A DNA stretch of 64,000 nt from Flavobacteriales bacterium. Lineage in GTDB: Bacteria > Bacteroidota > Bacteroidia > JACJYZ01. Below are positions 25,734 to 48,880 of this stretch, in pieces. Each line of letters begins with the position of its first letter. Within the stretch, counting starts at the first letter, position 1. A program made the position numbers and the translations under genes. Below the pieces are notes generated by a model. The model did no database searches. It was not told where the DNA came from and was given only the letters and a program-made list of their open reading frames with translations. The stretch is taken from assembly GCA_020635855.1 (NCBI GenBank), contig JACJYZ010000004.1:238020-302019 (forward strand), in the 5' to 3' direction.

Positions 25734-25750
25734 CTACCAACTAATAACCA
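25720..25750. repeat. Right arm of the 31-bp inverted repeat (ccaataaccaataactaccaactaataacca)
   Basis: Exact reverse complement of 25201-25231. Confidence 0.9.
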
Positions 25751-25772
25751 GTATCCAAAACCACAAACTCAA

Positions 25773-26549
25773 GTGTACCAACATATCCTCTTCGAAACCC
25801 GAAACAACGTCGCCCACCTCACCCTCAACCGCCCTGACGCACTCAATAGTTTTCACACAGGCATGGCAAAGGAGGTGCAGGCCGCACTTGACATATGCGC
25901 ATCCGATCAGGGCATCCGTGCCGTTTGCCTCACCGGAGCCGGACGTGGATTCTGTGCCGGACAGGATCTTGCAGAAGCCATCGAACCCGGAACCGATCTC
26001 GCCGGCATTGTTCGCAACACATACAACCCCATCATCCTGAAAATCCGCCGACTCGAAAAACCAGTGGTATGCGCTGTGAATGGTGTGGCTGCCGGCGCCG
26101 GTGCCAACATCGCTTTTGCATGCGACATCACCCTTGCCGCCGAAAGCGCTCCCTTCATCCAATCTTTCGCCAACATCGGACTCATACCAGATAGTGCCGG
26201 CACCTATTTTTTACCGCGCCTGGTGGGTTTGCAGAAAGCCACTGCCATGGCCATGCTGGCGGAAAAGATCAAAGCGGGGGAAGCGGCAGACCTGGGGCTC
26301 ATTTACAAAGCCGTGCCGGACGATCTGCTGATCAACGAAGCCACTGCCCTTGCCGAAAAACTTGCTGGCATGCCCACACGCGGATTGGGGCTCACGAAAC
26401 GAGCATTCCTGGCCGGCTTTAACAACACACTCGAACAACAACTGGAACTCGAAGAGCAACTGCAGGCGGAAGCCGGAACAACCGCCGATCACAAAGAAGG
26501 TGTACAAGCCTTCCTCGAAAAAAGAAAACCTGCATTCAAAGGTGCATAA
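25773..26549 (+). CDS. paaG: Enoyl-CoA hydratase/isomerase PaaG (1,2-epoxyphenylacetyl-CoA isomerase)
   Basis: Crotonase-fold motifs (AHLTLNRPDALNSF, CLTGAGRGFCAGQDL). Position in the paa cluster. Confidence 0.8.
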   Translation: MYQHILFETRNNVAHLTLNRPDALNSFHTGMAKEVQAALDICASDQGIRAVCLTGAGRGFCAGQDLAEAIEPGTDLAGIVRNTYNPIILKIRRLEKPVVCAVNGVAAGAGANIAFACDITLAAESAPFIQSFANIGLIPDSAGTYFLPRLVGLQKATAMAMLAEKIKAGEAADLGLIYKAVPDDLLINEATALAEKLAGMPTRGLGLTKRAFLAGFNNTLEQQLELEEQLQAEAGTTADHKEGVQAFLEKRKPAFKGA

Positions 26550-26550
26550 C

Positions 26551-27720: not shown

Positions 27721-28139
27721 CACAGCAATCGCAAGGAAGTGCCATTGTAAACAGGATGATGAAAGACGATGCCTTCAGCCGATGGCTGGGCATTGAAGTA
27801 ATTGAATCAGGTCCGGGCTTGTCCGTATTGCGCATGAAAGTGCGAGCAGAAATGATGAACGGCTTTGGTGTGGGGCACGGCGGGATCACCTTTTCACTGG
27901 CCGACAGTGCACTTGCATTTGCATCCAACGCACACGGGCGCCTCAGCCTGGCGCTGGAAGTATCCATTTCATTTCCCACACCGGTGCACGAAGGAGACAC
28001 ACTGACCGCCCACGCGGAAGAACTCAGCCTGACCAACCGCACCGGACTTTACCTGATTACCGTTACCAACCAACACGAGGAAAAAGTGGCGGTATTCAAG
28101 GGAACCGTGTATCGCACCAGCAAAGAATGGGAGGTTTGA
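27717..28139 (+). CDS. paaI: Hydroxyphenylacetyl-CoA thioesterase PaaI (hotdog fold)
   Basis: Hotdog thioesterase motif (NGFGVGHGGITFSLADSALAFA). 4-nt overlap with paaH. Confidence 0.8.
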   Translation: MTQQSQGSAIVNRMMKDDAFSRWLGIEVIESGPGLSVLRMKVRAEMMNGFGVGHGGITFSLADSALAFASNAHGRLSLALEVSISFPTPVHEGDTLTAHAEELSLTNRTGLYLITVTNQHEEKVAVFKGTVYRTSKEWEV

Positions 28140-28158
28140 CCGCTCCAAATCAACACAT

Positions 28159-29364
28159 ATGAAAGAAGCATTTATCATTGACGCTGTTCGCACCCCGATC
28201 GGAAATTTCGGAGGCAGCCTTGCACCGGTTCGTGCCGATGACCTGGCCGCCCACGTGATCCGAGAACTGATGAAACGTCATCCCGACCTTCAGGCAAACG
28301 CCATCGACGATGTGATCATGGGATGTGCCAACCAGGCCGGCGAAGACAACCGCAATGTAGCGCGCATGGCCTTGTTGCTTGGCGGACTTCCTTATACCGT
28401 GCCCGGCGAAACGGTGAACCGATTGTGTGCATCCGGCATGTCGGCAGTGATACATGCCAACCGTGCCATCAAAGCGGGAGACGGAGATGTGTTCATTGCC
28501 GGTGGCGTGGAACACATGACGCGCGGCCCCTGGGTGATTTCCAAGGTATCCAAACCGTGGGGGCGTGACGCGGAAATGCATGACTCAAGCTTCGGATGGC
28601 GCTTCGTGAACCCTAAGATGAAAGAAATGTATGGCACCGATGGCATGGGTGAAACCGCCGAAAACCTGTTGGACCTGAAAGCGATTTCCAGGGAAGATCA
28701 GGATCGTTTCGCCTACAGGTCGCATCAAAAGGCCCATGCCGCTCGCACATCCGGAAGGCTGGCAAAAGAGATCGCACCGGTGCCGATTCCGCAACGAAAA
28801 GGAGATCCGGTGATGTTCGCAGAAGATGAATTCATCAAACCCGAAACTACACCGGAAGTACTTGCACAATTGCGCCCGGCATTCCGGAAAGACGGAAGCG
28901 TGACCGCAGGCAATGCCTCCGGTTTGAATGACGGCGCCGCAGCCATGCTGGTTGCGTCGGATGAAGGTGTGAAGCGGTACGGCCTGAAACCGGTTGCGCG
29001 CATCGTGGCATCCGGTGTGGCGGGCGTTGAACCACGAATCATGGGCATCGGTCCGGTGAACGCTTCTGCCATCGCCTTGAAACGGGCCAGCCTTACCCTG
29101 GCTGACATGGACATCCTGGAACTGAATGAAGCTTTCGCCGCACAAGTGTTATCCTGCACCAGAACCTGGGACATTGACGACGAAGATGACAGGTTGAACC
29201 CGAACGGTGGGGCCATCGCAATGGGCCATCCGCTGGGCATGTCGGGCACCCGCATCCTGCAAACCGCTGCACTTCAGCTGCAGGAAACAGGCAAACGCTA
29301 TGCGCTGGTGACCATGTGCATCGGGGTTGGACAAGGCTACGCAACGATCATTGAGCGCTGCTGA
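28159..29364 (+). CDS. paaJ: 3-oxoadipyl-CoA thiolase PaaJ (beta-ketoadipyl-CoA thiolase)
   Basis: Thiolase motifs (NRLCASGMSAV active-site Cys region, C-terminal GGAIAMGHPLGMSGTR, CIGVGQG). Confidence 0.85.
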   Translation: MKEAFIIDAVRTPIGNFGGSLAPVRADDLAAHVIRELMKRHPDLQANAIDDVIMGCANQAGEDNRNVARMALLLGGLPYTVPGETVNRLCASGMSAVIHANRAIKAGDGDVFIAGGVEHMTRGPWVISKVSKPWGRDAEMHDSSFGWRFVNPKMKEMYGTDGMGETAENLLDLKAISREDQDRFAYRSHQKAHAARTSGRLAKEIAPVPIPQRKGDPVMFAEDEFIKPETTPEVLAQLRPAFRKDGSVTAGNASGLNDGAAAMLVASDEGVKRYGLKPVARIVASGVAGVEPRIMGIGPVNASAIALKRASLTLADMDILELNEAFAAQVLSCTRTWDIDDEDDRLNPNGGAIAMGHPLGMSGTRILQTAALQLQETGKRYALVTMCIGVGQGYATIIERC

Positions 29365-30497: not shown

Positions 30498-31076
30498 ATG
30501 AAACCACATCCCGCTCTCACAGATGAAGCCCTGATCAACGGCATCATACAGGGAGAGAACAAGGATCTTTTCAGTGAAATCTATCGTCGTTACCGGGAGA
30601 AGGTATCTGACAAGTGCTTTGGAATGACACATAATCGTTCCATAGCCGAAGATCTTACGCAGGATATTTTTGTAAAGACCATGGAAAAGCTGACAGGTTT
30701 CCGGAACCAGTCGCAATTTTCCACCTGGCTATACGCCATCACCTATAACCATTGCATTGAGTATTTACGTAAAACCAAACGCATCCGGTTTGACGACTGG
30801 GAGTCGGCGCTGGATATACCCGATGAGGTGGAAGACGTGGATGTAAAGATGGTGCTTGAACTGGCCGAAGAAAGACTCACGTTGCTGCTGGAAATGTTGA
30901 AACCGGAAGACAAAGCGATCATTGTGATGAAGTTCCATGAGAACATGTCCGTGAAGAGCATCCAGGAAATCCTGCACCTGGCTACTGATAGTGCGGCAAA
31001 GATGAAGATCAACCGCGCAAAGAAAAGGCTGGTGGCCCTGTACCAAAAGTTTTATCCTGCACTGAAGGAATCCTGA
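30498..31076 (+). CDS. RNA polymerase sigma-70 factor, ECF subfamily
   Basis: Region 2 (DLTQDIFVKTMEKL, YAITYNHCIEYLR) and region 4 HTH (NMSVKSIQEIL). Confidence 0.85.
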   Translation: MKPHPALTDEALINGIIQGENKDLFSEIYRRYREKVSDKCFGMTHNRSIAEDLTQDIFVKTMEKLTGFRNQSQFSTWLYAITYNHCIEYLRKTKRIRFDDWESALDIPDEVEDVDVKMVLELAEERLTLLLEMLKPEDKAIIVMKFHENMSVKSIQEILHLATDSAAKMKINRAKKRLVALYQKFYPALKES

Positions 31077-31892: not shown

Positions 31893-32753
31893 ATGAGTTT
31901 GCTGCCGGTTGCCCGACGCATGTTGGCGCTTACTTGCCTGGCAATGCTTGCCTTCGTATGGCCTTCATCACAAGCCTCTGAACCTACCGCGCTGTCTGTG
32001 ATGGAAAGCATGTTCGCCAGGATGGATAGCCTACGGACACTGCAGTTCTACCTTGTCAACTGGGAAAGGATCGAAGGCAAACTCATGTCGGGTGAGCAGC
32101 GGGTATGGCTTCAGACCCGTCCTTTCCAGTGCTACATTTACATGATTGCCCCCCAAAGAGGTGCGGAACTGTTATACGCAGGACCCAAAACGGGAGGAGA
32201 AGCGATTTACAATCCCAAAGGATTTCCATACATGAAGATCAACCTGGATCCCATGGGTGAAACCATTCGCAAGAACAACCACCACACCATCTTCGAACTC
32301 GGATTCCAATACCTGTCGGACATCTTACGTGACCTGAACAACCGTAACATGCTGAATGTGGAACTGGAAGGTGTTCGTGAAGTGGCAGGCAGGAATTGCA
32401 CGGTGATCAAGGCCACCGTTCCGTCTTTCAAAACCGAGAATCATACGGTTGAAAAATGGGAAACGCTCGTTAGCATCGCACGCAAAAAAAATCTCAGTGA
32501 ATACATGCTGATGGAAATGAACCCAGATACCGATGACTATGAGGACGTAGAAGCCGGTCAGGTGATAAGGATCCCCTCCGCCTACGCACAATCGTTTGAA
32601 TTGGCTATAGACAATGAAACACGTGTACCTGTCGAGATATCCGTTTTCGACGCTAAAGGCTTATTCGAAAAATACCTCTACAAAAACGTTCGCATCAATC
32701 CCTTCATCCCACCGGCGACTTTTTCCGAGACCAACCTGGGAAGGATCAAATAA
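31893..32753 (+). CDS. DUF1571-like (LolA-fold) secreted protein with an internal LysM domain
   Basis: Signal peptide. Central LysM-like segment (HTVEKWETLVSIARKKNLSEYMLMEMNPDTDDYEDVEAGQVIRIP). Confidence 0.5.
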   Translation: MSLLPVARRMLALTCLAMLAFVWPSSQASEPTALSVMESMFARMDSLRTLQFYLVNWERIEGKLMSGEQRVWLQTRPFQCYIYMIAPQRGAELLYAGPKTGGEAIYNPKGFPYMKINLDPMGETIRKNNHHTIFELGFQYLSDILRDLNNRNMLNVELEGVREVAGRNCTVIKATVPSFKTENHTVEKWETLVSIARKKNLSEYMLMEMNPDTDDYEDVEAGQVIRIPSAYAQSFELAIDNETRVPVEISVFDAKGLFEKYLYKNVRINPFIPPATFSETNLGRIK

Positions 32754-33496: not shown

Positions 33497-34666
33497 ATGG
33501 GAGAATTCCACGAAAAAATTTTGATCGTTGAAGATAACCGCATGAATATTGCGGCAATCAAAGCGAGCTTGAAGGGCCTGAATGAGGATTACATTTTGCT
33601 GGAGGCGGAAACTGCGTCCGAAGGCATTCGCCTGGCTCGACGGGAAAAACCGGCCCTGATTCTTCTGGACATCCGACTGCCCGACATGGACGGCTTCGAA
33701 CTTGCAAAAACATTGAAAGCCGCCAAGCAAACCAAGTACATTCCTATTATCTATATCTCCGGGCTGGACGATATGGATTCCAAACTAACCGCCTTCACCA
33801 CCGGAGGCGTGGATTACATCACCAAGCCTTTCCATCGCCAGGAAGTCATGGCCCGGGTCAATACCCAACTCAAGATCCATCGCCTGCAGAACAACCTGGC
33901 TACCCGGAACAGGGAGATCCAGGAAAGCATCGGCTATGCAAAGCAGATCCAGGAAGCACTGATGCCTTCAGAGTCCCAACTCAAAGAGGACCTCGGGCAA
34001 TACTTCATCTTTTTTCAACCCAAAGACATTCTTTCGGGTGACATGTATTGGGCGCGGGAATACCATGGTGATGTGTTGATCGCCTGCATCGACTGTACCG
34101 GCCACGGCATTCCCGGTGCACTGATCTCACTCGTAGGTCACAACCTGTTGAACCAGGCCACCGGCCTTGAAAAAAACCTCAGTCCGGCAGAAATCCTCCA
34201 GGAAGTGGATCGCAAATTGATCGAAACCCTGAACCAAAGTGGTGTGGAAGGCAAGAACCAGGATGGAATGGACATCGCCCTGTGCCGCATCTCCAAGAAA
34301 AAATCCAAGCTGGTGTTCGCAGGCGCCTATCGACCCATGTATCTTGTACGTAATGGCGTATGTGATGAATGGAAAGGTGATAAACAGCCCGTAGGTGGCA
34401 CACAGGTGAAGAAGAAGGTATTCACCAACCAGGAAATCAGCCTGAAGAAAGGAGACATGGTATACCTCCTTACAGACGGATTTACCGATCAGTTCGGCAG
34501 CGAAGAAGACAAGAAATTCTCCGGAAAACGCTTGCGGAAACTACTCGCTGAGATTGGCGATAAATCTGTAAAAGAGCAGAAAAAAATCCTGCAACAAACA
34601 TTTCAGGATTGGGCTTCCGGACATGAACAGGTGGATGATGTCCTGCTCATCGGTCTGTCCTTCTGA
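33497..34666 (+). CDS. Response regulator receiver fused to PP2C/SpoIIE-type serine phosphatase (RsbU-like)
   Basis: REC domain (ILIVEDN...LLDIRLPDMDGFEL...KPF). PPM phosphatase motifs (SGDMYWA, IDCTGHGIPGA, DGMDIAL, LTDGFTD). Confidence 0.85.
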   Translation: MGEFHEKILIVEDNRMNIAAIKASLKGLNEDYILLEAETASEGIRLARREKPALILLDIRLPDMDGFELAKTLKAAKQTKYIPIIYISGLDDMDSKLTAFTTGGVDYITKPFHRQEVMARVNTQLKIHRLQNNLATRNREIQESIGYAKQIQEALMPSESQLKEDLGQYFIFFQPKDILSGDMYWAREYHGDVLIACIDCTGHGIPGALISLVGHNLLNQATGLEKNLSPAEILQEVDRKLIETLNQSGVEGKNQDGMDIALCRISKKKSKLVFAGAYRPMYLVRNGVCDEWKGDKQPVGGTQVKKKVFTNQEISLKKGDMVYLLTDGFTDQFGSEEDKKFSGKRLRKLLAEIGDKSVKEQKKILQQTFQDWASGHEQVDDVLLIGLSF

Positions 34667-34672
34667 TATCGA

Positions 34673-35029
34673 TCAGCTCTTTAATTTTTCAGCCTCGCCT
34701 TTCAGTTCACCAATGGCTTCCATGCATACCTTTTTCATGGTATCCACCAGTTGTGGGATCTCCTCAAGGTCATTGCGATCTCCCGCATTGCGTTCGATTT
34801 TACGCACAACTTCCTTCAGGTTATCAATGCCCATGTAGTCGATATTGGGCTTGATCGTGTGGGCAATGTCCCTTACTTCCTGCCAGTTCTGGCTCTGCAT
34901 GTTTTGTTCCAGGCTGGATAAATAACCGGGGATTTTATCATTGAACAATTCGATCATTTCGATCACAAACGTTGAGTCCCCACCGGAAAGGTCGTTGAGG
35001 TATGACAGGTTGATAACAGACATATCCAT
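34673..35029 (-). CDS. Hpt (histidine phosphotransfer) domain protein
   Basis: 118-aa all-helical ORF with a conserved His in the AHTIKPNIDYMGI context, typical of Hpt. Immediately downstream of the hybrid kinase. Confidence 0.6.
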   Translation of the reverse strand: MDMSVINLSYLNDLSGGDSTFVIEMIELFNDKIPGYLSSLEQNMQSQNWQEVRDIAHTIKPNIDYMGIDNLKEVVRKIERNAGDRNDLEEIPQLVDTMKKVCMEAIGELKGEAEKLKS

Positions 35030-35131
35030 CTTCTTTTGTGTTTGGAGGTTCCACTTTCAGAATTGATGTCAAGCCTAGTAAATATAGGTAATTTCCCCGT
35101 ATTTTCAAAACCCGCCAGATCGTCTTTTGCG

Positions 35132-37381
35132 TCAACGAAGCAATTCAACCAATTTGCGCCTGAGTAGCTTTTCGTCAAATGGTTTCGAAATATAATCATC
35201 CATTCCCGCTTTCAGGCATTTTTCTCTTTCCTCGGGTGCGGCATGTGCAGTGATGGCCATAATAGGAAGGCTGTTCCATTTCCGCTCTTTATGTGAACGA
35301 ATGGCGGCAGTAGCTTGGTAGCCGTCCATTTCCGGCATTTGAATATCCATCAGCACAGCATCATATTGGTCATCGTCAAGTGCATCCACGCCAAGCCTGC
35401 CGTTGTCGGCAAGGGTCACATCCATGCCCCACTTTGTCAGCACTTTTTTCGCCAGCATCTGGTTGATCTTGTTGTCTTCCACCACAAGTACTTTCTTGCC
35501 TGCCAGCACCTGCATTTCTTCTTCATCACCCACACCGGGGGTTCGATTGCTGCTGCTGGAGGCCACTGCATTGACCCAGATGTTGAACATGAATGTGCTG
35601 CCGATGCCTTCCTTGCTCTCAACATGGATGTCTCCCCCGAAAAGCTGCACCAGTTCCTTCGATATGGATAAACCCAGACCTGTTCCGCCATACTTGCGGG
35701 TGGTGTCGCTGGTGGCCTGCTCAAAACTGGAGAAGATAGACTCCAGTTTACTTTGCGGAATCCCGATACCGGTATCGATCACTTGAAATGCCAGACAATA
35801 CAGGTTATCCCTTTGGTCTTTGACATGGACAGCCAGTGACACGCCGCCTTTCTCAGTGAACTTGATGGCATTGCCGACAAGGTTCATCAAAACCTGGTTG
35901 AGCCGTACCCTGTCACTCAAAATCTGGAGAGGGACCTGTTCGGAACACTCTACGGTGAAATCAAGTCCTTTCTCCCTCGCCAGCACCAGCATGGTCTTCT
36001 CAATGGTATTCAGGAGGTCATCCAACCTGAAGGGGGCTTTCTCAAGCACAACCTTACCCGCTTCGATCTTGGAGAAATCCAATACATCGTTGATGATTGT
36101 CAGCAGGTTTTCCGCCGACACGTTGATGGCCTGCACATATTCTTTCTGTTCCTGATTCAGTGGCGTGTCGCCCAGCAGACGGGACATGCCCATTACACCG
36201 TTCATCGGCGTACGGATCTCATGGCTCATGTTGGCCAGGAATGTTGATTTCGCCTGGGTGGCACTTTCGGCCTGTTCCTTGGCCACCTTGAGGGCTTCCT
36301 CTGCTTTCACGCGTTCGGTGATGTCGCGTGCCACTGCCTGGAATTCCACCACTTTTTTGTTTTCAATGGTGGCTTCCACGTTCTGGCCAATCCAAACATC
36401 CCTTCCATCTTTGGTACGGATCTGAAATTCGAAGTAGGTGGTCGTGGTGAGGGACAACAATTGTTTCTTGTAGAATGCTCCTACCCGTTCCCTCCAATCG
36501 TCGTGGATCAGGTCCAGGTAATTCATTCTCAATAATTCTTTATCTGTATACCCTGTAATGCGTTTTGCGATGGGGTTGAGATAGGTGAAATAACCATTGA
36601 AGTCGGCCCGGTAGATCATGTCGTGCGCATTTTCCACGATCGTCCTGTACCGTTCTTCACTTTCCAGCAACGCTTCGTTACCTCTTTGAACCGCCGTCAT
36701 CATTTCATTAAAGCCTTCCACCAGAATACCTATTTCATCTTCTCCGTCCCTTTCAATGCGAATGGAATAATCCTTTTCCTTGGAAATTTTCCTGGCCACA
36801 TTCGCCAGCCGCAAGATGGGGTGAGAGATCACACTCTGCAGCCGGAGCGATACAAAATACACCACCACAAGTGAAACGGACAGAATTCCAAGGATGATAA
36901 AGAGGGAGCGGCGCAACAGGGCATGCAGTTGCCCCAGGTCTGACTGCAGGTACACGGTTGATACCCATTCATCGGATTCATGGATGGGGATAAACACTTC
37001 CAAAGCATCATCGGTAAAACGGTGCCCCAGGTCTTCCGATTCAGGAAGGTGATCGGGTTCATCAAATCCCGGTTTCACATATTTGCTGAAAACCTTTCCC
37101 GACCTGTCGTAAATAATGGCCAGGCGTATGTTTTCGTCAGCAGCGAGTGTTTTGAGCGATTGGTTACTGATCAGTGAATCGTCAAATAATACCGGTGAAG
37201 TATTGTTCTCTCCGATCACCTGCCCCATGATCATGATCTCACGCACCATTTCTTCCTTGGCACGGCTGTATTCAAACGACAGGTAGGCCGCACAGGAAAG
37301 GATCAAACTCAAACCACTGACCACCATACTGATCAGCAAAAGCTTATTCCGGATCGATATGTTGCGGAAATTAAGAGCCAT
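35132..37381 (-). CDS. Hybrid sensor histidine kinase/response regulator (periplasmic sensor, HAMP, PAS, HisKA, HATPase_c, REC)
   Basis: Two TM segments bracket a periplasmic region of about 140 aa. H-box [15 protein letters not shown] and N/G boxes are present. C-terminal REC has [11 protein letters not shown] and DIQMPEMDG. Confidence 0.9.
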
Positions 37382-37934
37382 AAGGTTTGATGATCTTAGC
37401 CAGCATCAATAGTTTGGAACTGATGCGGATCTTTTTCTGATCCGCCGTGACCTTGTTGATTTGGAAGCCATATTTGGATTGCCTGTTGGAGAAATTAATG
37501 ATGCCCCCCAGCTGACAGAACTCTTCGATTTCATCACCAACCGTCAGCACCGGTTTGTTTTTCACCATGTCCAGGATTTCCCTTATCCTCAGCCGTTCCG
37601 ATCCTGAGACAAAGAGGATGTGACACTCCCCTACATCCCGCCATTGCTGGTAGCGTTTTACCTGCCATGTTCTGCCATTGGTGGTGCGCCCTTTAACAAT
37701 GTTGTCAAGCACCTCTCCGAAAGGGTCATCACCCACCACAGCTATAATAATGGGAGATTCCGGGGTTTCAAAAGCCTTCTCAGGCCAATCCACAAATTTT
37801 CCGAAGTTAAAGAGGAAGGCGGCTTTGACCTCATATTCAGAATAGGTCTGCGCCTGCAAACGCTGGAAGAAAAGCATTCCAAAAAGACTCATCAGCAAGA
37901 TGATCCGCATCCGGTATGTGGTGGTACGTATCAT
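37371..37934 (-). CDS. YfiR-like (DUF4154) periplasmic protein
   Basis: Signal peptide. YEVKAAFLFNFGKFVDWP is the typical DUF4154/YfiR start. It overlaps the kinase start by 11 nt and the upstream OmpA-family gene stop by 4 nt. Confidence 0.7.
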   Translation of the reverse strand: MIRTTTYRMRIILLMSLFGMLFFQRLQAQTYSEYEVKAAFLFNFGKFVDWPEKAFETPESPIIIAVVGDDPFGEVLDNIVKGRTTNGRTWQVKRYQQWRDVGECHILFVSGSERLRIREILDMVKNKPVLTVGDEIEEFCQLGGIINFSNRQSKYGFQINKVTADQKKIRISSKLLMLAKIIKPYGS

Positions 37935-40348
37935 TGCCTGTCCATGGGTTTTGTGGCAACCAGCGATATCACCGTTTTCCGGTTGGCTTCCCTGGCTTTG
38001 CCACTGGATTTGATCTCACCGTGCCAGGCCACCATGATCCGTTCCTTGGGTATTCCCAGATTAACAAGGAATTGCTGAACCGTTACCGATCTTTGGCGCG
38101 ACAGTTCCTGGTTGGCTTCAGGTGTACCCACGTCATCCGTGTAGCCTTCCACCCGAATCAGGAAATCGGGATGGCTGACCACAACCTTCACCAGTTTCTT
38201 GAGATCTTCCCTGTAATGATTGGATATCGTTGCCTGACCGGTTTCATAAAACACCGTGATCCGCGTGAGCCCGTCGTAGCGAACTTCCTCCACGTACCGT
38301 TCCGGATCATCGGCATCGAAAGGTGTGGTATAGATGGTATCCTCACCTATCACATATGGAATCAGCTTGTCGCCATACAGGTACTTGCTGTCAACGGGAT
38401 CTCTCGATACAATTTCATCCACATGCTGCAATGCGATGCTGTCCGTGGTCTCGAAGATCTGGTCGATGGTAGCCAGCAAGGGTGAATAGCGCATGTCCTG
38501 CACATTCACGATGCTGCCGGAATCCTGCACCAATTGATCAACAGCCTCGTCCAGGCTGGAAAGCCCGGTGGAATCAATCTGATTGATGAGTTTCTCCAAA
38601 AGATCCAGCAAAGGGTCATAGTCTTTGCTGTTATAGGTACTGTACTGCACGTCCATCGTGGAGGTATCGGGCAGATGCGTGCGAACATCATAAAAAGTAT
38701 TGCGAATGGAGAGTTGCTCCCCGATGATCGTATCCTGCCGGTTCGGATCATCGGTGGATTTGATATCACTCAGGTGGATCTCCTGGTAAAGCTCATAAAA
38801 GTATTTCTGTTGCGGAACATAGATGTTGATCAGGTGAGGGGTATAGCCTTCGGCCTCCACCACCATGTCGTAGTTTTTCCCTGGCGGGAAGATCATCAGG
38901 TACTTTCCAGTTTTGGGATTCGGGTTGTACACGTAGTGTAGTTTCCTGTTGGTTTCACGATCAATCACGTTGATTTTCGCCGCCACCGGTTTGGCCGGAT
39001 CGCCGGCGGTAATAACACCCCTGATCAGGGTGAGGGGGATTGATTCGGAAGGCATCCTCATGGAATAAAGGTCCAGGTCGCCGAATCCGCTGCGCCGGTT
39101 GGAAGCGAAGTATCCGTTGCGGCCATTGGCAGAAACCACAAAGTAAACATCATCGCCTGTGGAATTGATCGGGTAGCCCAGGTTCACCGGAACCGACCAT
39201 TCGGTGTGCATTTTCTTGGCTTTGAAAACATCGTACCCACCCATTCCCCGATGGCCTTTTGAAGAGAAATACAAAGTCTTTTGATCTGGATGGATGAAGG
39301 GAGCATCCTCGTCTTCGGGTGTATTCACCATCGGGCCCAGGTTGATGGGTTTCGACCACTTGTCGTCTCCCAAACGCTCCACCTTGTAAATGTCTTTGCC
39401 ACCATAACCACCAGGCCTGTTGCTGGAGAAATAGATGGTGTTCTCATCGGGTGTGATGCTGGCACTTCCTTCCCAAAAATTGGAACTGATGTGGTTGATC
39501 TTTTCCGGTGCAGACCAGGTGGAATCCGCCTGTGCCACGCAGAGGTATATATTGCCGGCACGCCTGCTGCCTTTGTAGATCATCAGTTTCTGACCATCGG
39601 CGTACATACCCACGGATCCGAAATTGCCTTTTTCATTCCCATCAAACTGAAGCAGGGAAGGAACCGACCAGGTGGAGTCTTTTCGATATGAAATGTAGAT
39701 CCTTTCGTCTTGTTGTTCCTTGGAAAACTTGTCCATGATGGACTGTCTTTCTGTGGCTGTAAAGATCAGGATACGCTCATCTGCGGAGATCACCGGACTG
39801 TGTTCCGCCCAGGGAGAATTAACCACCAAGCCCAGGTTCTTCACCTCAACAGCCACCGAATCAGCGATCAGATCTATGGCTGCTTCAGTTGTGTTGATGT
39901 GTTTCCAGATGAATTCCTTCTTGCCCTTGTCCGCATCTTCGGGAAGTCCGCTCATGTATGACTGGTAACATTCCATGGCCTTGGAAAACTTCTGCTGGTA
40001 GTGATACAGTTCACCCAGGTACACCCACGCTTCGGCCGGCACATTGTCGCCGATATGTTTCACCGCTTTCTCCAGGTAAGGGATGGCTTTTTCTTTTTCA
40101 AGCTCCGACTTGTTATAACATAGACCTATCTGGTAACAGAAGAGCGGATCGTTCTTGATGGTTTTGTCCTGAATACGCTTGAAGAGCGGGAGCGCTTCCG
40201 CATACTCACCTTTGTCAAAGGCAACCCTGGCATCTTTCAGCAGCTTTTCGTCCTGACCGTTTTGGGCAAAGACAGGAGCACACAGTAACATGCATCCATA
40301 TGCCACTGCCATCAGGCGTAAAAGAAACAACTTGGGATTCGGGGTCAT
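37931..40348 (-). CDS. PorE-like OmpA-family protein: N-terminal TPR, TolB-type beta-propeller repeats, C-terminal OmpA peptidoglycan-binding domain
   Basis: Signal peptide. TPR (AEALPLFKRIQDK...). Repeated propeller blades (TPDENTIYFSSNRPGGYGGKDIY, HPDQKTLYFSSKGHRGMGGYDVF). OmpA_C motif (VEGYTDDVGTPEANQELSRQRSVTV). Confidence 0.8.
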   Translation of the reverse strand: MTPNPKLFLLRLMAVAYGCMLLCAPVFAQNGQDEKLLKDARVAFDKGEYAEALPLFKRIQDKTIKNDPLFCYQIGLCYNKSELEKEKAIPYLEKAVKHIGDNVPAEAWVYLGELYHYQQKFSKAMECYQSYMSGLPEDADKGKKEFIWKHINTTEAAIDLIADSVAVEVKNLGLVVNSPWAEHSPVISADERILIFTATERQSIMDKFSKEQQDERIYISYRKDSTWSVPSLLQFDGNEKGNFGSVGMYADGQKLMIYKGSRRAGNIYLCVAQADSTWSAPEKINHISSNFWEGSASITPDENTIYFSSNRPGGYGGKDIYKVERLGDDKWSKPINLGPMVNTPEDEDAPFIHPDQKTLYFSSKGHRGMGGYDVFKAKKMHTEWSVPVNLGYPINSTGDDVYFVVSANGRNGYFASNRRSGFGDLDLYSMRMPSESIPLTLIRGVITAGDPAKPVAAKINVIDRETNRKLHYVYNPNPKTGKYLMIFPPGKNYDMVVEAEGYTPHLINIYVPQQKYFYELYQEIHLSDIKSTDDPNRQDTIIGEQLSIRNTFYDVRTHLPDTSTMDVQYSTYNSKDYDPLLDLLEKLINQIDSTGLSSLDEAVDQLVQDSGSIVNVQDMRYSPLLATIDQIFETTDSIALQHVDEIVSRDPVDSKYLYGDKLIPYVIGEDTIYTTPFDADDPERYVEEVRYDGLTRITVFYETGQATISNHYREDLKKLVKVVVSHPDFLIRVEGYTDDVGTPEANQELSRQRSVTVQQFLVNLGIPKERIMVAWHGEIKSSGKAREANRKTVISLVATKPMDRQ

Positions 40349-40368
40349 GCAGAGGGTGGGATGGGGCT

Positions 40369-41718
40369 TTAGTGCTGGGATGATTTTTCAGCCTGTAACA
40401 TACGATACAGGGTTGATTTACCAATGTCCAGTTTTTTGGCTACAAGCAATACATTTTGATCATAGCGTTCAAGGTAATGCTTTATGATCATTTCCGTGTA
40501 TTGCTTAAGCGTCATATTATCTTCCAATAATGATTTCGGAGAACGCATGGCATCCAGGTTCAGGTCCGATGCTTCCAGTACATCTCCATTGCTCATGACC
40601 GCAGCCAATTCAACGGAAGCCTTTAATTCACGGATGTTACCCGGGAACCCGTATGCCATTAGTTTTTGTTGTGCTTCCGGAGAAATGGTCATTTTCTTCA
40701 GGTTGTTTTCCTTGCAAAAGGTATCCAGGTAATGGCGCGCGATCAATATGATATCATTTCCCCTATCCCGCAAAGGAGGTAACTGAACGGGTAAGCCCAG
40801 AAGCCGGTAAAACAAATCTTCCCGGAAGCGCCCTGCCTTCACCTCTTCGAGCAGGTTCCGGTGGGTGGCCACCAGCACACGTACATCCACTTTCACTACT
40901 TCATTGCCACCTATGCGTGTGATCTCTTTTTCCTGGAGTACCCTCAACAACTTCGCCTGCATGTTCAGGTCCATCTCTCCGATCTCATCCAGGAAGATGG
41001 TACCCTGATGGGCTTCTTCAAATTTACCGATCCGCCTGGTATGTGCACCTGTAAAGGAGCCTTTCTCATGGCCGAACAATTCGCTTTCCATCAGATCCGC
41101 GGGGATTGCGGTCACATTCACCGCAACAAACGGTTTCTTTTTGCGGGAAGAATTATAGTGGATGGCTTTTGCAACCAATTCCTTTCCCGTTCCGGTTTCG
41201 CCGGTGATGGAAACCGTGATGTTGGTTTCCGCAGCTTTCTTAATCAATTGATGGATTTTGTGAATGGCGTCGCTGTCGCCAATGATGTTCTTATCCGCCA
41301 CATATTTCTTCTCCACCTCTTCCTGAAGGTGATGTACCTGTTCCAATAATTCCTGCTTTTGGGAAATGTTGGATAACGTGATCCACAAACGATCCTTGGT
41401 GGAATCATCTTTCACCACATAATCAAACGCCCCGCTTCTCAGCAGTGAAACAGCGGTTGAAATATCTTCCTGGGCGGATACGATCACCACATCCGTTTCC
41501 GGGCTGGTAGAACGAATACGTTCAAGGATCTGTGCACCTGTGGTACCGGGCAGGTTATAATCAAGCGTGACCACCTCAGGTTTTTTCGGAAGTGCCTTAT
41601 ATAAGGAAGGCGCGTCATGAAAGATCGTTACCTCATGATCGGGATTCAGCAGAATCAAATGCTGAAGGAACCGTGCGTAGACGGGATCGTCTTCTACAAT
41701 GAAAATTCTCATAACCAA
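40369..41718 (-). CDS. Sigma-54-dependent response regulator (NtrC family: REC + AAA+ sigma54 activator + Fis-type HTH)
   Basis: REC (IVEDDPVYARFL). Walker A GETGTGKE and GAFTGA (GSFTGA) motif. C-terminal HTH. Confidence 0.9.
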   Translation of the reverse strand: MVMRIFIVEDDPVYARFLQHLILLNPDHEVTIFHDAPSLYKALPKKPEVVTLDYNLPGTTGAQILERIRSTSPETDVVIVSAQEDISTAVSLLRSGAFDYVVKDDSTKDRLWITLSNISQKQELLEQVHHLQEEVEKKYVADKNIIGDSDAIHKIHQLIKKAAETNITVSITGETGTGKELVAKAIHYNSSRKKKPFVAVNVTAIPADLMESELFGHEKGSFTGAHTRRIGKFEEAHQGTIFLDEIGEMDLNMQAKLLRVLQEKEITRIGGNEVVKVDVRVLVATHRNLLEEVKAGRFREDLFYRLLGLPVQLPPLRDRGNDIILIARHYLDTFCKENNLKKMTISPEAQQKLMAYGFPGNIRELKASVELAAVMSNGDVLEASDLNLDAMRSPKSLLEDNMTLKQYTEMIIKHYLERYDQNVLLVAKKLDIGKSTLYRMLQAEKSSQH

Positions 41719-41945
41719 AAATGAAATGGTTCGGGAGTAGCCCTTGCCCTTTGTCCATTTCTACGCAAAAAGGGCATCCGGGTTTCCCATACCGGTAAAA
41801 TGCGTCCCAATTTGGGAAATATTTTCAACCGTGCCAAAATTTTTACCATTGATTTTCAGATAGTTACAACCTTTTTCGGGGCTTGGCATCATTCTTCGCT
41901 ATGGGTATGGCACACAGCGATAACAACCTAAAAAAATATACGATC

Positions 41946-44177: not shown

Positions 44178-46277
44178 ATGAAAAGATTCTTACCCCAGGT
44201 TCTGGCGTTGTGCCTATTAATTATGCATCCGGTTGTCGCGCAAGAGTATTATCCATGTGGGACATGGGAGGCCGTGCGAAAATCATTGACTGAACATCCC
44301 GAGTTGGCGCAAATGCAGGAACAATTGGAAGCCTTCACAGCCGATTGGGTGAAAGCACATCCTCCTTCATCCAAGCGCTCCAACGGCACACCCCTGTACA
44401 TCATTCCGGTGGTGATTCACATCATTCACAACTACGGCACCGAGAACTTTCCCGACGCACAGGTGTATGATGCCATCCGGATCATCAACGAAGATTTCCA
44501 GAAAAGGAATTACGACACAACCTCGGTCAGTCCCAGCTTTAAGAACCTGATCGCCGATGTTCAGGTAGCGTTCAGGCTGGCGCAGATTGATCCGAACGGA
44601 AACTGTACCAACGGCATTACACGCACCGCATCGGTCATCACCTACAATGCCGACAATGACGTTGCCATCAAATCGCTGGTGGTATGGAACACGAGCATGT
44701 ACCTCAACGTTTGGGTGGTTAACAACATACCGGGTGCCGGCGGATATGCCTACTATCCCGGCACTACCCAACCGTCCAGGGAAGGAATCGTGATCCGGAA
44801 TACGCAGTTCGGAAGCATTCTCACCAGCCTCAGCGGAAACCTGTCTGCGCGATCCCTCACACATGAAGTCGGTCACTATTTCAACCTCCGGCACACATGG
44901 GGAGATTCGAATACACCGGGCGAGGCCGGTAACTGTAACACCGATGACCTGGTAGACGACACACCGAATACCATGGGTGCGAACTTAACCTGCGATCTCA
45001 ATGAGGTTACATGCGGCAGTCTCGACAATGTGAACAATTACATGGATTATTCAGGATGCGGCAGAATGTACACGGAAGGACAAAAAACCAGGATGGATGC
45101 GGCCCTCAACAGCACCGTTGGCTCCAGAAGCAATTTGTGGAGCAATACCAACCTGATTGCCACCGGTACAAACGACGGGTATGTGGGTTCTGTTTGCGCA
45201 CCCATAGCTGATTTCCGGCCTACGGTTCGTTTCCTTTGCGCGGGTGACTCCATTTCATTCAGCCACACGTCATGGAATGCCACAGCCGATAGCATCACCA
45301 CCGAATGGACATTTCAGGGGGGCACCCCCGGCAGCAGCCAGCTTGAAAATCCTTTTGTGCTTTACAACACACCCGGCGTATACGATGTCAAAGTGAAGGT
45401 ATCCACATCAGGTGGGGCAGACAGCATCCTGTCAACAGGCATTGTGCATGTGATGGAGGATACCGCCCAGATGAAAGCGCCGGCGGCCCAGGACTTCCAA
45501 TCGATTTCTTTTCCCGACGCGAACTGGTTCAACCTGAGCGAAAGTGTTTCTGCCAATGAATGGACACTGACAACGGCTGCATCCGTCAGCGGAGACAAGA
45601 GTATTCGCATCGACAACTACAACAAGGGAAGCGAAGCCGAAGAGTCGTCATTTGTGACGCCTACTTTCGATATCAGCGGCCTGACATTACCCAACCTGAC
45701 ATTCCAGCTGGCTTATGCCCAACGCACATCTTCCGATGGAGACAAATTGCAGGTATATGCCAGCACAGATTGTGGCAAAACCTGGAAGCTGCGGTACACG
45801 AAATCCGGTTCGCTCCTGAACACGGCCTCCGGAGTCAAAGCGAGTAGCTTCGTTCCCAATGCCAGCGAGTGGCGGGAGGAAACCATCAGCCTGAACTATG
45901 CGGTAGGTGCCTCCAGCATCCGTTTCAAATTCGCCTTCACCAGCAACCTGGGTAACAACATCTATATCGACGATATCAACGTAGATGGAGTCAACGGCAT
46001 CAATGATGCATTCGAACGTTCACTGGGATTGCAACTCTACCCGAATCCTACAGGAGATGCTTCCTATCTTTCATTCAAACTGGAAGGTAACCGGGAAGTA
46101 GAGATATGGACCACGGACCTTACCGGAAAGCGGGTTGCATTGAATATGCCATCAACAAATATGGCCTCCGGTATACATGGAATGTGGCTTGCCAATGAAG
46201 GCACCGGCGGTGTGTACCTGATCCACGTAAGGGTAGACCACCGTGTGGTTGTGCGGAAATGGATGAAGATTTATTGA
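44178..46277 (+). CDS. Secreted M43-family (cytophagalysin/pappalysin-like) zinc metalloprotease with a T9SS type-A C-terminal sorting domain
   Basis: Signal peptide. HEVGHYFNLRHTWGD zinc-binding motif. C-terminal LYPNPTGD... Por-secretion tail. Confidence 0.8.
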   Translation: MKRFLPQVLALCLLIMHPVVAQEYYPCGTWEAVRKSLTEHPELAQMQEQLEAFTADWVKAHPPSSKRSNGTPLYIIPVVIHIIHNYGTENFPDAQVYDAIRIINEDFQKRNYDTTSVSPSFKNLIADVQVAFRLAQIDPNGNCTNGITRTASVITYNADNDVAIKSLVVWNTSMYLNVWVVNNIPGAGGYAYYPGTTQPSREGIVIRNTQFGSILTSLSGNLSARSLTHEVGHYFNLRHTWGDSNTPGEAGNCNTDDLVDDTPNTMGANLTCDLNEVTCGSLDNVNNYMDYSGCGRMYTEGQKTRMDAALNSTVGSRSNLWSNTNLIATGTNDGYVGSVCAPIADFRPTVRFLCAGDSISFSHTSWNATADSITTEWTFQGGTPGSSQLENPFVLYNTPGVYDVKVKVSTSGGADSILSTGIVHVMEDTAQMKAPAAQDFQSISFPDANWFNLSESVSANEWTLTTAASVSGDKSIRIDNYNKGSEAEESSFVTPTFDISGLTLPNLTFQLAYAQRTSSDGDKLQVYASTDCGKTWKLRYTKSGSLLNTASGVKASSFVPNASEWREETISLNYAVGASSIRFKFAFTSNLGNNIYIDDINVDGVNGINDAFERSLGLQLYPNPTGDASYLSFKLEGNREVEIWTTDLTGKRVALNMPSTNMASGIHGMWLANEGTGGVYLIHVRVDHRVVVRKWMKIY

Positions 46278-46621
46278 GCATCCTCCGGCTTCGAGAAACC
46301 GCTCTTGTCAGCAAAGTGTGCGCAATAATCGCGCAGGTCTTCTGCCAGATTTCTCTCACCCGTCGCTTTTTCCAGGGTATCGGCAAGTGAAAGCAAGGTC
46401 TGGAACATGAACACCTTCATGTCATCCACCAACATATCTTTCGTCCACAGATCTATTCTCATGGCATTGCCATCCTGAGGGTCCCACATGGACATGATCA
46501 TGGCTTTGGCGCTTTGCTCGTTCTCCATATCGGCATCCGTTGCTTGCCAGCTAATGGTATCCGGCACCTGGTTTTCATCCAGTCCAACTTTAACAGTGAT
46601 CTGTGACTCTTTCTTCTTCAT
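46271..46621 (-). CDS. gldC: Gliding motility protein GldC-like
   Basis: 116-aa protein with the pattern LDENQVPD...WQATD...AKAMIMSMWD...MRIDLWTKDMLVDDMK, recalled as characteristic of GldC. Assignment from memory. Confidence 0.6.
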   Translation of the reverse strand: MKKKESQITVKVGLDENQVPDTISWQATDADMENEQSAKAMIMSMWDPQDGNAMRIDLWTKDMLVDDMKVFMFQTLLSLADTLEKATGERNLAEDLRDYCAHFADKSGFSKPEDAQ

Positions 46622-46687
46622 GGCGCAAATGTAAAAAGAAACGGCCGGGCAGATGCCGGCCGTTCGGATTTCTTCGCGGGAAATGTT

Positions 46688-48880
46688 TTAGTATTTGGTT
46701 TCTCCGATCACCTTTTGTTGCTGATCCGTTACCTTGAATGCCGTGCGGCGGTTTTTCTGGTGTTCCTCCTCAGTGGTGGCATTCTGAATCAGCAGTCTGG
46801 TTTCACCATAGCCATGTGGTTTCAGACGTTCTTTGGGTATTCCTTTATCGATAAGATAGTGCACCACCGAATTCGCACGACCCTGAGACAACTTCAGGTT
46901 GTATGAATCACTTCCACGGGCATCGGTGTGAGAACCAATTTCCACGGTGATGTCATCATTCAACTGAAGGAAGTCAAACAGGTCATCCAGTACTTTTTTC
47001 GACGCCGGGCGAAGGGTGGTATCATTGTAATCATATTCGATACCTGGAATTTCGATGTCATCCGGCGGGATGGGTTCCAGGTAGAAGTCATGGGTGAATT
47101 CCGTTGACTTTGTAATGTTCTCGGTAGAAAGGGAAAAGGCATCTGCAAAGAATTTTACCTTCTGTGCTTTCGAGAAATATTGAATGTCTTCAATCAGCGT
47201 GGTGTTGTACTGACCCTCTTCATTGGTGATGATGAAAATGGGCTGAATGCCTTCCTTCACATCGGTGATCTGCACCAGGGTATTGGGCATCTTCTCCTGC
47301 GTATTGCGGTTGAAAACCGTTCCTTTCATGGTGATGAGGAGTGGTTCGGCCTGCACCTGGTAGATCTTGTAACAAAACAGGTCTTTGTTGTCTTTACAGC
47401 TTTCACAACTGTCGCGGTCGGAAGTCATGAAGCCGGTGCGGCCTTCCATGCGATCCACCACAAAGAACAGATCATCCTTGCCGGAATTGAAAGGACGACC
47501 CATGTTGATGGGACGCAACCACGTGCTATCCTGCCCATATGACCTGAACACATCCAATCCTCCCAGGCCGGTATGACCATCAGAACTGAAGTACAGCGTA
47601 TTGTTGATATGATGCAGGTACGGGGTTACCTCGTTTTCGCTGGTGTTGATCACCGACCCCAGGTTCTTGGCTTCGCCGGCATTGCCGAATTCATCAATCG
47701 GTGATACCCAGATATCCATTTTCCCGTATCCTCCCGGGCGATCGCTGGCAAAGAACAGGCGGTCTTCTTCAGGTGACAGGGCAGGATATTTGGAGGAATA
47801 TCCCTGTTGGTTGATGTTTTCGTTCAACTTCATTGGCAGCAACCACTTTCCGTTCAGGAAGCGGCTGAGATAGATGGCACATTCCCCTTTGCCATCGCAT
47901 CTGGTGAAGTAAAAGTGTGAGCGGTCAATGGAAATCACGCCGGCACCTTCATTGCCTTCGGTGTTCACCGGTCGACGCATGTTCTTGGGTGTTTGCCAAT
48001 TTCCGCCTTCCTGATCGGTCAGATAAAGATCACTGGTGATGGTCGGGTCATCGTTTTTCTCATCGAGCACCACGTTGTCTTTGCGTCCACTGGCAAAAAT
48101 GATCACGCCTTCATCGTTATAAAAATTGGCACCGAAACTGGATGTACCGCCGTTGATCACCGTATCCATGAGGTTTACTTCAGCCTTGGGCCTAGGTTTC
48201 TGATGCGATTCTGCAAATGCCACATTGAACAACTTCTTCTGGGCCAGTTGCACGATGGTGTTATCGGTTCCGTCGTAGGTTTCTATGAACTTCTCCAGCT
48301 GAGCCTGGGATTCGGGATACTTCTCGTTGTTCATTAACACCATGGCATAATTGTACCGTGCGAACGGATGCCGTTTGGATTCGTTCTGCACAGCCTTTGC
48401 ATACCACTGTTCGGCTTTTTTATACTGATAAGAAAGTCGGAAACAATCTGCAATCTGGTGAACCACATATTGATATTTGCCATAAACGAGGTTGCCGCCT
48501 TCGGCGTCGATAGGCTGATCACCGGTTGTCGGGTTGGCTGCATCGGGTTGAGGTGGCACGGTGTCACCCTGCTGTCGCATGAGGCTATCGAGCTGGGTAC
48601 TGTCGGGTGCTTCGGTGGCTGCAGCCGGTTTGTTTTCTTCCTTATCGGGTTTGATGTACGCCACAACTTCGTATGGATACACGGTACTTTCTTCATCCAG
48701 TGTACCCTCGTCCAGCACTTTCAGGTAGAACTTGGCAGCGGAGGCATAATCACCTTTCTTATAAGCTTCATCGCCGTAATAAAGCCATTCACGCTTGCTT
48801 TGTGCCTGGCTTTGCAGTGCACTGAAACAAAACAGTGTGGCAAACAGATATAGCAGGGAAATTCTCACAGTCGCGGGCAA
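46688..48880 (-). CDS. PorE-like OmpA-family protein (TPR + TolB-type beta-propeller + OmpA_C), paralog of 37931..40348
   Basis: Signal peptide. TPR (YYGDEAYKKGDYASAAKFYLKVLD). Propeller blades (LSPEEDRLFFASDRPGGYGKMDIW, NNTLYFSSDGHTGLGGLDVF). OmpA_C (EIGSHTDARGSDSYNLKLSQGRANSV). Start overlaps the PorP/SprF stop by 16 nt. Confidence 0.8.
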   Translation of the reverse strand: MPATVRISLLYLFATLFCFSALQSQAQSKREWLYYGDEAYKKGDYASAAKFYLKVLDEGTLDEESTVYPYEVVAYIKPDKEENKPAAATEAPDSTQLDSLMRQQGDTVPPQPDAANPTTGDQPIDAEGGNLVYGKYQYVVHQIADCFRLSYQYKKAEQWYAKAVQNESKRHPFARYNYAMVLMNNEKYPESQAQLEKFIETYDGTDNTIVQLAQKKLFNVAFAESHQKPRPKAEVNLMDTVINGGTSSFGANFYNDEGVIIFASGRKDNVVLDEKNDDPTITSDLYLTDQEGGNWQTPKNMRRPVNTEGNEGAGVISIDRSHFYFTRCDGKGECAIYLSRFLNGKWLLPMKLNENINQQGYSSKYPALSPEEDRLFFASDRPGGYGKMDIWVSPIDEFGNAGEAKNLGSVINTSENEVTPYLHHINNTLYFSSDGHTGLGGLDVFRSYGQDSTWLRPINMGRPFNSGKDDLFFVVDRMEGRTGFMTSDRDSCESCKDNKDLFCYKIYQVQAEPLLITMKGTVFNRNTQEKMPNTLVQITDVKEGIQPIFIITNEEGQYNTTLIEDIQYFSKAQKVKFFADAFSLSTENITKSTEFTHDFYLEPIPPDDIEIPGIEYDYNDTTLRPASKKVLDDLFDFLQLNDDITVEIGSHTDARGSDSYNLKLSQGRANSVVHYLIDKGIPKERLKPHGYGETRLLIQNATTEEEHQKNRRTAFKVTDQQQKVIGETKY

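Follow-up and report, generated by a model that had tools for sequence, protein, structure and literature searches.

By which component of the envelope is a YfiR-like periplasmic protein governed in bacteria of the phylum Bacteroidota, and what output does it control in turn? The question is raised by a compact signaling locus in the genome of an uncultured Flavobacteriales bacterium, examined here within a 64-kb stretch of contig JACJYZ010000004.1 (hereafter, the window). Genes encoding an NtrC-type sigma54 activator, an exported PorE-like (OmpA-type) protein of 805 amino acids (aa), a YfiR-like protein and a hybrid sensor histidine kinase (HK) form one apparent operon, with a gene for a stand-alone Hpt phosphotransfer protein just downstream and, converging on the latter, a gene for a response regulator phosphatase composed of receiver (REC) and PP2C domains (REC-PP2C; Table 1). 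On balance, and with reservations set out below, we favor the view that this region represents a Bacteroidota-specific variant of a widespread module comprising an outer-membrane partner, a YfiR-like protein and a kinase bearing a periplasmic CHASE8 domain, in which the PorE-like protein would capture or release the YfiR-like protein, and a phosphorelay would lead to REC-PP2C, to the NtrC-type regulator, or to both.

The YfiR-like/CHASE8 kinase core and its wider family

Eighty genome and 80 metagenome loci retrieved with a YfiR-like profile (including a few duplicates), to which L081 and L082 were added from contig look-ups, gave 162 loci in total, which were mapped with the domains of the window proteins. 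A CHASE8-HAMP protein is encoded directly 3' of the YfiR-like gene in 139 of these, and a further 12 loci stop at a contig edge (139/150 informative); the linkage is far beyond chance. The gene directly 5' encodes a TonB-dependent receptor in 102/162 loci (Pfam), and the receptors of L002 and L055 match the NCBIfam model of the TOL_0244 family of TonB-dependent receptors with 657 and 765 bits, respectively (cutoff 645). Since the receptor, YfiR-like protein and kinase are curated as a trio in NCBIfam (NF053590, NF053591 and NF053592) and recur together among these loci, the general unit consists of these three components. The modularity of a core formed by YfiR and the YfiN sensor was described by Malone et al. 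in 2012, who predicted sensor-kinase, hybrid-kinase and Hpt outputs and found most operons with this core to be without yfiB (PMC3375315). Pairing of a YfiR-like gene with a CHASE8 kinase is thus already catalogued and carries no novelty, and the view of the first-pass annotation, made from the sequence alone, that the wiring of this locus was an undescribed unit has to be withdrawn to that extent. No experimental description of the TOL_0244/TOL_0243/kinase trio was found in the literature searched.

The window proteins fall within this family. In addition to a DUF4154 match of 150 bits (Pfam), the YfiR-like protein passes the model of TOL_0243 family YfiR-like periplasmic proteins (NF053591; 157.3 bits, cutoff 125), and the kinase N-terminus passes, marginally, that of a "sensor histidine kinase, YfiR-like protein-associated" (NF053592; 194.5, cutoff 194); the arrangement of the trio, with the outer partner first, then the YfiR-like protein and then the CHASE8 kinase, is likewise kept. 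The locus departs from the trio at both ends, having a periplasmic TPR/propeller/OmpA_C protein and no TOL_0244 receptor upstream, and Hpt together with REC-PP2C, NtrC or STAS where the trio frequently has REC-GGDEF(-EAL) regulators. In the wider family the kinase is often followed by a single REC protein and a REC-(PAS)-GGDEF(-EAL) regulator, and a GGDEF protein is encoded downstream in 31 of the 82 loci whose sequence extends downstream for 5 kb or more, arguing that many members still end in cyclic di-GMP (c-di-GMP). This arrangement of the trio, a single-domain REC and a REC-(PAS)-GGDEF(-EAL) protein is common in Acidobacteriota, Verrucomicrobiota and other phyla (for example, L019 6310-10839 and L014 4238-9039) and constitutes a two-step route to c-di-GMP, parallel to the direct output of YfiN. 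GGDEF and STAS occur together in two loci.

A PorE paralog in the position of the receptor

A TPR/PD40/OmpA protein of ~800 aa holds the position of the receptor in 13 of the 162 loci, and these come exclusively from Bacteroidota. Approached from the OmpA side, homologs of ~820-830 aa are followed in every case (4/4; L169, L171, L172 and L173) by genes for a DUF4154 protein, a CHASE8 hybrid kinase and Hpt; two OmpA-type homologs of ~760-780 aa, from Fulvivirga and Thermonemataceae, stand alone. The order OmpA-type/YfiR-like/HK/Hpt was found in 16 distinct Bacteroidota loci, including the window, in metagenome-assembled genomes (MAGs) labeled as Flavobacteriales, Marinilabiliales, Salinivirgaceae, Bacteroidales, Bacteroidia or just Bacteroidetes. 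Conservation of the gene neighborhood, on which the first-pass annotation had staked its proposal, is therefore borne out for this core across several Bacteroidota orders.

The OmpA-linked YfiR-like proteins are monophyletic in a neighbor-joining tree (12/12, with no receptor-linked member inside), and the OmpA proteins linked to them form a clade of their own, apart from PorE-like paralogs encoded near the same loci. Identity among the YfiR-like proteins from different lineages of the clade is no more than about 40%, and the distance from the OmpA-type stop to the YfiR-like start remains between -4 and +39 nt in all clade loci. Signature residues of the clade (Y31, E35, R83, W90, C140 and S153) are each present in 15% or fewer, and mostly in 0-3%, of 100 receptor-linked YfiR-like proteins. 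Overall, this monophyly, the signature residues and the constant adjacency indicate that the outer partner was probably exchanged once, in an ancestor of the clade, and that co-evolution of the partners followed. One signature position, C140, occurs in 12/12 OmpA-linked and 0/100 receptor-linked members, and C104 is conserved across 98% of all family members; the clade may thus possess a disulfide or redox switch of its own. In the literature and libraries searched, a conserved Bacteroidota variant having a PorE paralog instead of a TonB-dependent receptor is new, as is its candidate output through Hpt/STAS/PP2C or NtrC instead of c-di-GMP. Because the same input module usually feeds REC-GGDEF(-EAL) proteins in other phyla, the Bacteroidota clade would have exchanged both its outer partner and its output.

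The identity of this outer partner was considered in relation to PorE and YfiB. The published description of PorE (PMC12773672) gives it a four-domain plan of TPR, WD40/PD40 propeller, CRD and OmpA_C-like domains. An AlphaFold2 model of the 805-aa protein (mean pLDDT 79.9) predicts a signal peptide, TPR helices (31-162) leading into a beta-propeller (168-431), a beta-sandwich (440-553), a helical linker modeled with low confidence (558-640) and an OmpA_C domain (696-798). Its top Foldseek matches are TolB, the C-terminal domain of PorE (6TOP) and peptidoglycan-binding domains of Pal/OmpA type. The PorE-type TPR/beta-propeller/CRD/OmpA_C architecture is thereby matched, the CRD-like identity of segment 440-553 being read from its predicted beta-sandwich and motifs only, and the peptidoglycan-binding D738/R753 motif of the OmpA_C domain is intact. 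The protein nevertheless differs from PorE (PG1058) and CHU_0125 in scoring well below the respective NCBIfam cutoffs (NF052230, 244.1 vs 600; CHU_0125, 241 vs 620), in an extra low-confidence linker of ~100 aa, in its separate clade and in its gene neighbors, which are ntrC and the yfiR-like gene and not porP. It has a conserved A-Q site of the signal-peptidase-I type and no canonical lipobox. Identity with PorE and with YfiB (NF053585, 38.1 vs 128) was rejected on the wide margins by which the cutoffs are missed; the missing lipobox and the lack of an adjoining porP also set the protein apart from PorE, as do the missing lipobox and its large multidomain structure from YfiB. The protein is best regarded as a PorE paralog that is neither PorE nor YfiB. 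The earlier proposal of a PorE-like protein at the YfiB position is thus upheld in its TPR, propeller and OmpA domains, and fails in regard to a true PorE and to any homology with YfiB beyond a generic OmpA_C domain; moreover, that position is held in the wider family by a TonB-dependent receptor and not by an OmpA protein.

The YfiR-like protein, kinase and Hpt

A studied counterpart of the module is YfiBNR (TpbB/HmsCDE), known from Pseudomonas, E. coli and Yersinia, with which it shares three tiers: a peptidoglycan-binding OmpA_C protein, a periplasmic DUF4154 protein and a CHASE8-HAMP sensor in the inner membrane. The YfiR-like protein fails the model of true YfiR (NF053586; 34.7, cutoff 85), with only the DUF4154 superfamily in common; a search of its single sequence against the PDB gave no match, whereas its family profile found YfiR (4yn7) with E=2.9e-7. 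The outer protein is not a YfiB, as noted above, and its gene comes first, whereas yfiRNB has yfiB last. The periplasmic domain of YfiN is now classed as CHASE8 (PMC8085984), the class of sensor found in the window kinase, where GGDEF is absent and PAS-HisKA-HATPase-REC is present instead.

The kinase is predicted to consist of a transmembrane (TM) segment, the periplasmic CHASE8 domain, a second TM segment, HAMP, PAS, HisKA, HATPase and REC (Pfam), with hydrophobic segments at approximately residues 10-35 and 150-180. Its H387 (in SHEIRTP) and D679 are intact, as is H57 of Hpt, and inspection of the sequences found catalytic and phospho-acceptor residues intact across all phosphorelay proteins. 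Each of the 13 OmpA-linked loci with sequence coverage encodes Hpt along with the kinase, either fused to the kinase C-terminus (n=8: L001, L004, L008, L009, L020, L028, L098 and L173) or as a separate gene (n=5: the window, L081, L169, L171 and L172). The window Hpt (Pfam match 40.2 bits) aligns over its full length with the fused L008 kinase at residues 647-751 (31% identity, E=3e-18) and matches the separate Hpt encoded in L169 as well. This end-to-end match and constant company argue that the stand-alone Hpt belongs to this kinase. A gene for a MORN-repeat protein (~240-250 aa) lies 3' of the stand-alone hpt in two Bacteroidia MAGs (L169, 12419-13180; L171, 14444-15154); it was set aside as uninformative.

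Candidate outputs of the phosphorelay

Two response regulators flank the module. REC-PP2C consists of REC and PP2C only in its 389 aa, with no HATPase domain (Response_reg 84 bits, SpoIIE 85 bits; Pfam); the PP2C part resembles SiaA (NCBIfam), and the protein retains D58 along with all four Asp motifs of PP2C. The NtrC-type regulator has Sigma54_activat (239 bits), Response_reg (68 bits) and AAA lid matches (Pfam), and retains D53, the Walker A sequence GETGTGKE, GSFTGA and the helix-turn-helix (HTH) segment KLDIGKSTLYRML.

Loci of relatives offer independent support for a partner-switching output. In seven of them a STAS protein of ~112 aa is encoded directly 3' of the kinase or HK-Hpt gene; this protein belongs to the anti-sigma factor antagonists (TIGR00377; 63.6, cutoff 53.45) and has a phosphorylatable DSSG motif. 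In L172 the STAS gene is 2.3 kb off. A partner-switching output of the module is accordingly plausible, and so remains the partner switch that the earlier proposal named, beside Ser/Thr dephosphorylation, as what the terminal PP2C implies, with the STAS genes of seven relatives in its favor and the absence of STAS from the window against it. The logic of such a relay is itself known. In the HptB-HsbR-HsbA system, described in Pseudomonas and Shewanella, hybrid kinases act through HptB on HsbR (REC-PP2C-kinase) and thereby on HsbA (STAS; PMC6482189), so that a relay from hybrid HK through Hpt and REC-PP2C to STAS follows an established scheme. The likeness to HptB-HsbR-HsbA of P. aeruginosa and CrsR-CrsA of Shewanella lies in the hybrid kinase with separate Hpt, the candidate PP2C regulator and the STAS proteins of relatives; it differs in that the window REC-PP2C lacks the kinase/anti-sigma domain found at the C-terminus of HsbR and CrsR, that the window is without STAS, and that the input is a YfiR-like/CHASE8 module.

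Apart from the window, just two Flavobacteriales genomes, from closely related MAGs, have both regulators beside the module: L081, and L082 with L174, a pair of short contigs that stem from one sample and probably from one organism. Adjacency of REC-PP2C is kept in L081 and L174, and an ortholog of NtrC occupies the same position in L081 and L082 (65% identity in L082). The metagenome scan contained no relative closer than 48% identity and is uninformative on linkage of the two regulators to the module. Linkage of the two regulators to the module is thus limited to three closely related MAGs. In the proposed relay from HK through Hpt to REC-PP2C, residues and domains are as first described, and an adjacency confined to those MAGs does not establish REC-PP2C as its end point. 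The first-pass annotation had also left the co-operonic NtrC-type regulator out of account as a possible acceptor. On operon logic it is at least as good a candidate, because it lies on the same strand with a gap of 20 nt, whereas REC-PP2C is encoded on the opposite strand. The phosphorelay is possibly branched, with both regulators as candidate acceptors.

An ECF (extracytoplasmic function) sigma factor gene (30498-31076, +), with an open reading frame (ORF) of 158 aa, without Pfam match and possibly encoding an anti-sigma factor, 5 nt behind it, and a gene for a DUF1571/LysM protein (31893-32753, +) lie 1-3 kb from REC-PP2C and are conserved in L081. A link of the ECF sigma and DUF1571 genes to the PP2C output is conceivable.

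Proposed mechanism and alternatives

The mechanism we favor, built largely on analogy, is as follows. The YfiR-like protein would bind the CHASE8 domain and keep the kinase in one signaling state, as YfiR does with YfiN. The peptidoglycan-anchored PorE-like protein, in the position of the TonB-dependent receptor, would report the state of the envelope or cell wall by capturing or releasing the YfiR-like protein. The kinase, once released, would autophosphorylate H387, and the phosphoryl group would pass to D679 and then to H57 of Hpt. From Hpt it may be transferred to REC-PP2C and also, or instead, to the co-operonic NtrC-type sigma54 activator; the substrate of the phosphatase would be a phosphorylated STAS anti-sigma antagonist whose gene lies in another part of the genome. 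Several observations weigh against this scheme. On the input side, the YfiR-like protein is only a remote homolog of YfiR, as its bit score and profile match above attest, and the OmpA_C domain of the 805-aa protein is generic and, unlike YfiB and PorE, the protein has no lipobox. On the output side, a six-frame hidden Markov model (HMM) search of the window found no STAS, and no gene for an RsbW-type kinase is present there; the REC-PP2C gene is on the strand opposite to the module, and its homologs (37-45% identity) occur in unrelated contexts, either after a GAF hybrid kinase or as orphans, among which no YfiR module was seen. Sigma54 promoters (TGGCAC-N5-TTGC, with up to two mismatches) are not enriched in the window (69 found, 76 expected), where a single weak promoter-like site lies upstream of ntrC (41795-41809). 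In addition, SET, CorA, ECF-sigma and aminotransferase genes of the flanks are syntenic in the same three genomes, so that the adjacency of REC-PP2C and NtrC may reflect plain shared ancestry; with whole flanks syntenic, L081, L082 and L174 were rejected, although they keep NtrC, Hpt and REC-PP2C, as independent evidence of a functional linkage of either regulator.

The points concerning output bear on a possible, if rather doubtful, alternative in which the relay ends in the NtrC-type activator, in the manner of the LuxQ/LuxN-LuxU-LuxO system of Vibrio, and the convergent REC-PP2C is an unrelated neighbor served by another kinase. Regulators co-transcribed with a kinase are usually partners of that kinase, and the close spacing and common strand of ntrC and the PorE-like gene, together with the intact phospho-acceptor, Walker A, GSFTGA and HTH features of NtrC, are what this alternative would predict, as is the occurrence of REC-PP2C homologs with other hybrid kinases or alone. 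The locus shares with the Vibrio system a hybrid kinase, Hpt and an NtrC-type sigma54 activator, which have their best or near-best NCBIfam similarities there (kinase to LuxQ, 406 bits; Hpt to LuxU, 23; regulator to LuxO, 350). All of these scores, however, fall far short of their equivalog cutoffs, the two systems differ in their sensing modules, and no convincing sigma54 target promoter was identified in the window. Moreover, NtrC is absent from the module in the 13 OmpA-linked loci outside the clade of the window itself, and those loci often carry a STAS gene, which points instead to a PP2C/partner-switch output.

The input side admits of other constructions. It is conceivable, though in our judgment improbable, that the PorE-like protein is not a sequestering partner at all and merely a co-expressed component of envelope or type IX secretion system (T9SS) architecture, the YfiR-like protein alone modulating the kinase, for example through redox-sensitive folding or a small ligand. 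Membership of the 805-aa protein in the PorE/CHU_0125 superfamily, the presence 6 kb away of PorE-like paralogs and T9SS genes (PorP/SprF, a cargo with type-B C-terminal domain, GldC-like), and a family-wide C104 with clade-specific C140, compatible with a redox-sensitive disulfide, would all accord with such a role, and the Yfi systems of Salmonella and Dickeya do without YfiB (PMC3375315). Against it, the OmpA proteins linked to YfiR-like proteins are a dedicated clade of orthologs, whose genes without exception lie immediately 5' within the narrow spacing given above, and the six signature residues of the YfiR-like proteins changed along with the exchange of partner. A different construction leaves the partnership intact and reverses its sign: the YfiR-like protein may be a positive transducer in the style of cell-surface signaling, activating the kinase, and not a sequestered repressor. 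TonB-dependent receptors of Fec-type systems signal inward, and it is a receptor of that class that stands next to the YfiR-like protein in most of the family; the remoteness of the latter from YfiR leaves room for such a change. However, YfiR and HmsC, the only homologs studied, both act as repressors (PMC3375315, PMC8085984), and we regard activation as unlikely. Sequestration and release of the YfiR-like protein by the PorE paralog, with relay to REC-PP2C, NtrC or both, is the reading retained here.

Layout of the module and neighboring features

The six ORFs are located where they were first annotated, and the overlaps between the OmpA-type and yfiR-like genes (4 nt) and between the yfiR-like and HK genes (11 nt) were reproduced, as was the 6-nt gap between the convergent REC-PP2C and hpt genes; the gap from the ntrC stop to the PorE-like gene, given earlier as 21 bp, measures 20 nt. 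The domains claimed at the outset, including DUF4154, OmpA, Hpt and SpoIIE, were all confirmed with Pfam, and the PorE-like and YfiR-like proteins each have a signal peptide. The listed start of ntrC is a TTG, an ATG two codons in, at 41712, being likelier. The hpt gene begins 102 nt downstream of the kinase gene, and the intervening gap contains TTGAAA-N16-TATATT, which may alternatively be read as a Bacteroidetes-type TTTG-N19-TAtaTTTa. Promoter-like sites are not enriched in the region (9 found, 11 expected; sigma70 scan against shuffles), a terminator scan gave no enrichment over shuffles, and an Rfam scan of the window gave no match.

Table 1. Coordinates of the signaling module and the neighboring T9SS-type operon (positions in the window)
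Feature	Position	Strand	Remarks
REC-PP2C (SpoIIE/RsbU-type) response regulator phosphatase	33497-34666	+	389 aa
Stand-alone Hpt phosphotransfer protein	34673-35029	-	Pfam Hpt
Kinase-hpt intergenic gap, promoter-like match	35030-35131	-	102 nt, consensus match only
Hybrid sensor HK	35132-37381	-	Pfam CHASE8-HAMP-PAS-HisKA-HATPase-REC
Periplasmic YfiR-like protein, TOL_0243 family	37371-37934	-	DUF4154, NF053591
Exported 805-aa PorE-like (OmpA-type) protein	37931-40348	-	Pfam TPR, PD40, OmpA
NtrC-type sigma54 enhancer-binding response regulator	40369-41718	-	REC, AAA+, C-terminal HTH
GldC-like protein	46271-46621	-	T9SS-type operon
730-aa PorE/CHU_0125-like TPR/PD40/OmpA protein	46688-48880	-	T9SS-type operon; CHU_0125 350/620, PorE 319/600, both below cutoff
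PorP/SprF	48865-49890	-	T9SS-type operon
1327-aa PKD protein with CHU_C type-B secretion signal	49900-53883	-	T9SS-type operon

A T9SS-type operon (46271-53883, -) lies 6 kb upstream of the module, and the order of its PorP/SprF, OmpA-type and GldC-like genes is kept in L081. It is the 730-aa PorE-like paralog of this operon, and not the 805-aa gene, that adjoins PorP/SprF, and the two belong to separate clades. PorE-like paralogs are also found near the module in the other OmpA-linked loci; from this proximity, the 805-aa gene may have originated by local duplication. A second large candidate T9SS cargo (54043-58185, +; 1380 aa) has SBBP beta-propeller repeats, Ig_7 and a CHU_C signal. Elsewhere in the window, the only low-GC stretch (10242-12155, +; 38.7% vs about 52%) encodes a 637-aa Schlafen AlbA_2/HATPase_c_4 protein and was probably acquired horizontally, and a cluster of phenylacetate/fatty-acid-type catabolism (22670-29364), with PaaA/PaaC-like proteins, 3-hydroxyacyl-CoA dehydrogenase and thiolase, represents ordinary metabolism unrelated to the module.

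Implications for envelope signaling in Bacteroidota

Envelope-stress signaling is poorly understood in Bacteroidota, where, to our knowledge, circuits of the Rcs, Cpx and c-di-GMP types known from Proteobacteria are largely missing. The cassette described here offers a concrete candidate pathway, which ties a PorE paralog predicted to bind peptidoglycan to a YfiR-like/CHASE8 kinase core and a candidate partner-switching output. Its individual components are all familiar. As a single input core that appears to have been re-plugged on both sides, from receptor to PorE-like protein and from GGDEF to STAS/PP2C/NtrC, it provides a useful case for the rewiring of signaling modules. By extension, and quite tentatively, since we rate the generalization as doubtful, YfiR-like proteins may be viewed as general periplasmic adaptors that connect an outer-envelope protein to a CHASE8 sensor; in Bacteroidota, a PorE paralog would sense the status of the cell wall, outer membrane or T9SS, and sequestration of the YfiR-like protein would elicit a STAS/PP2C and sigma54 response that replaces c-di-GMP. 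If this adaptor reading is true, the cassette would represent an uncharacterized envelope-stress pathway of the Bacteroidota.

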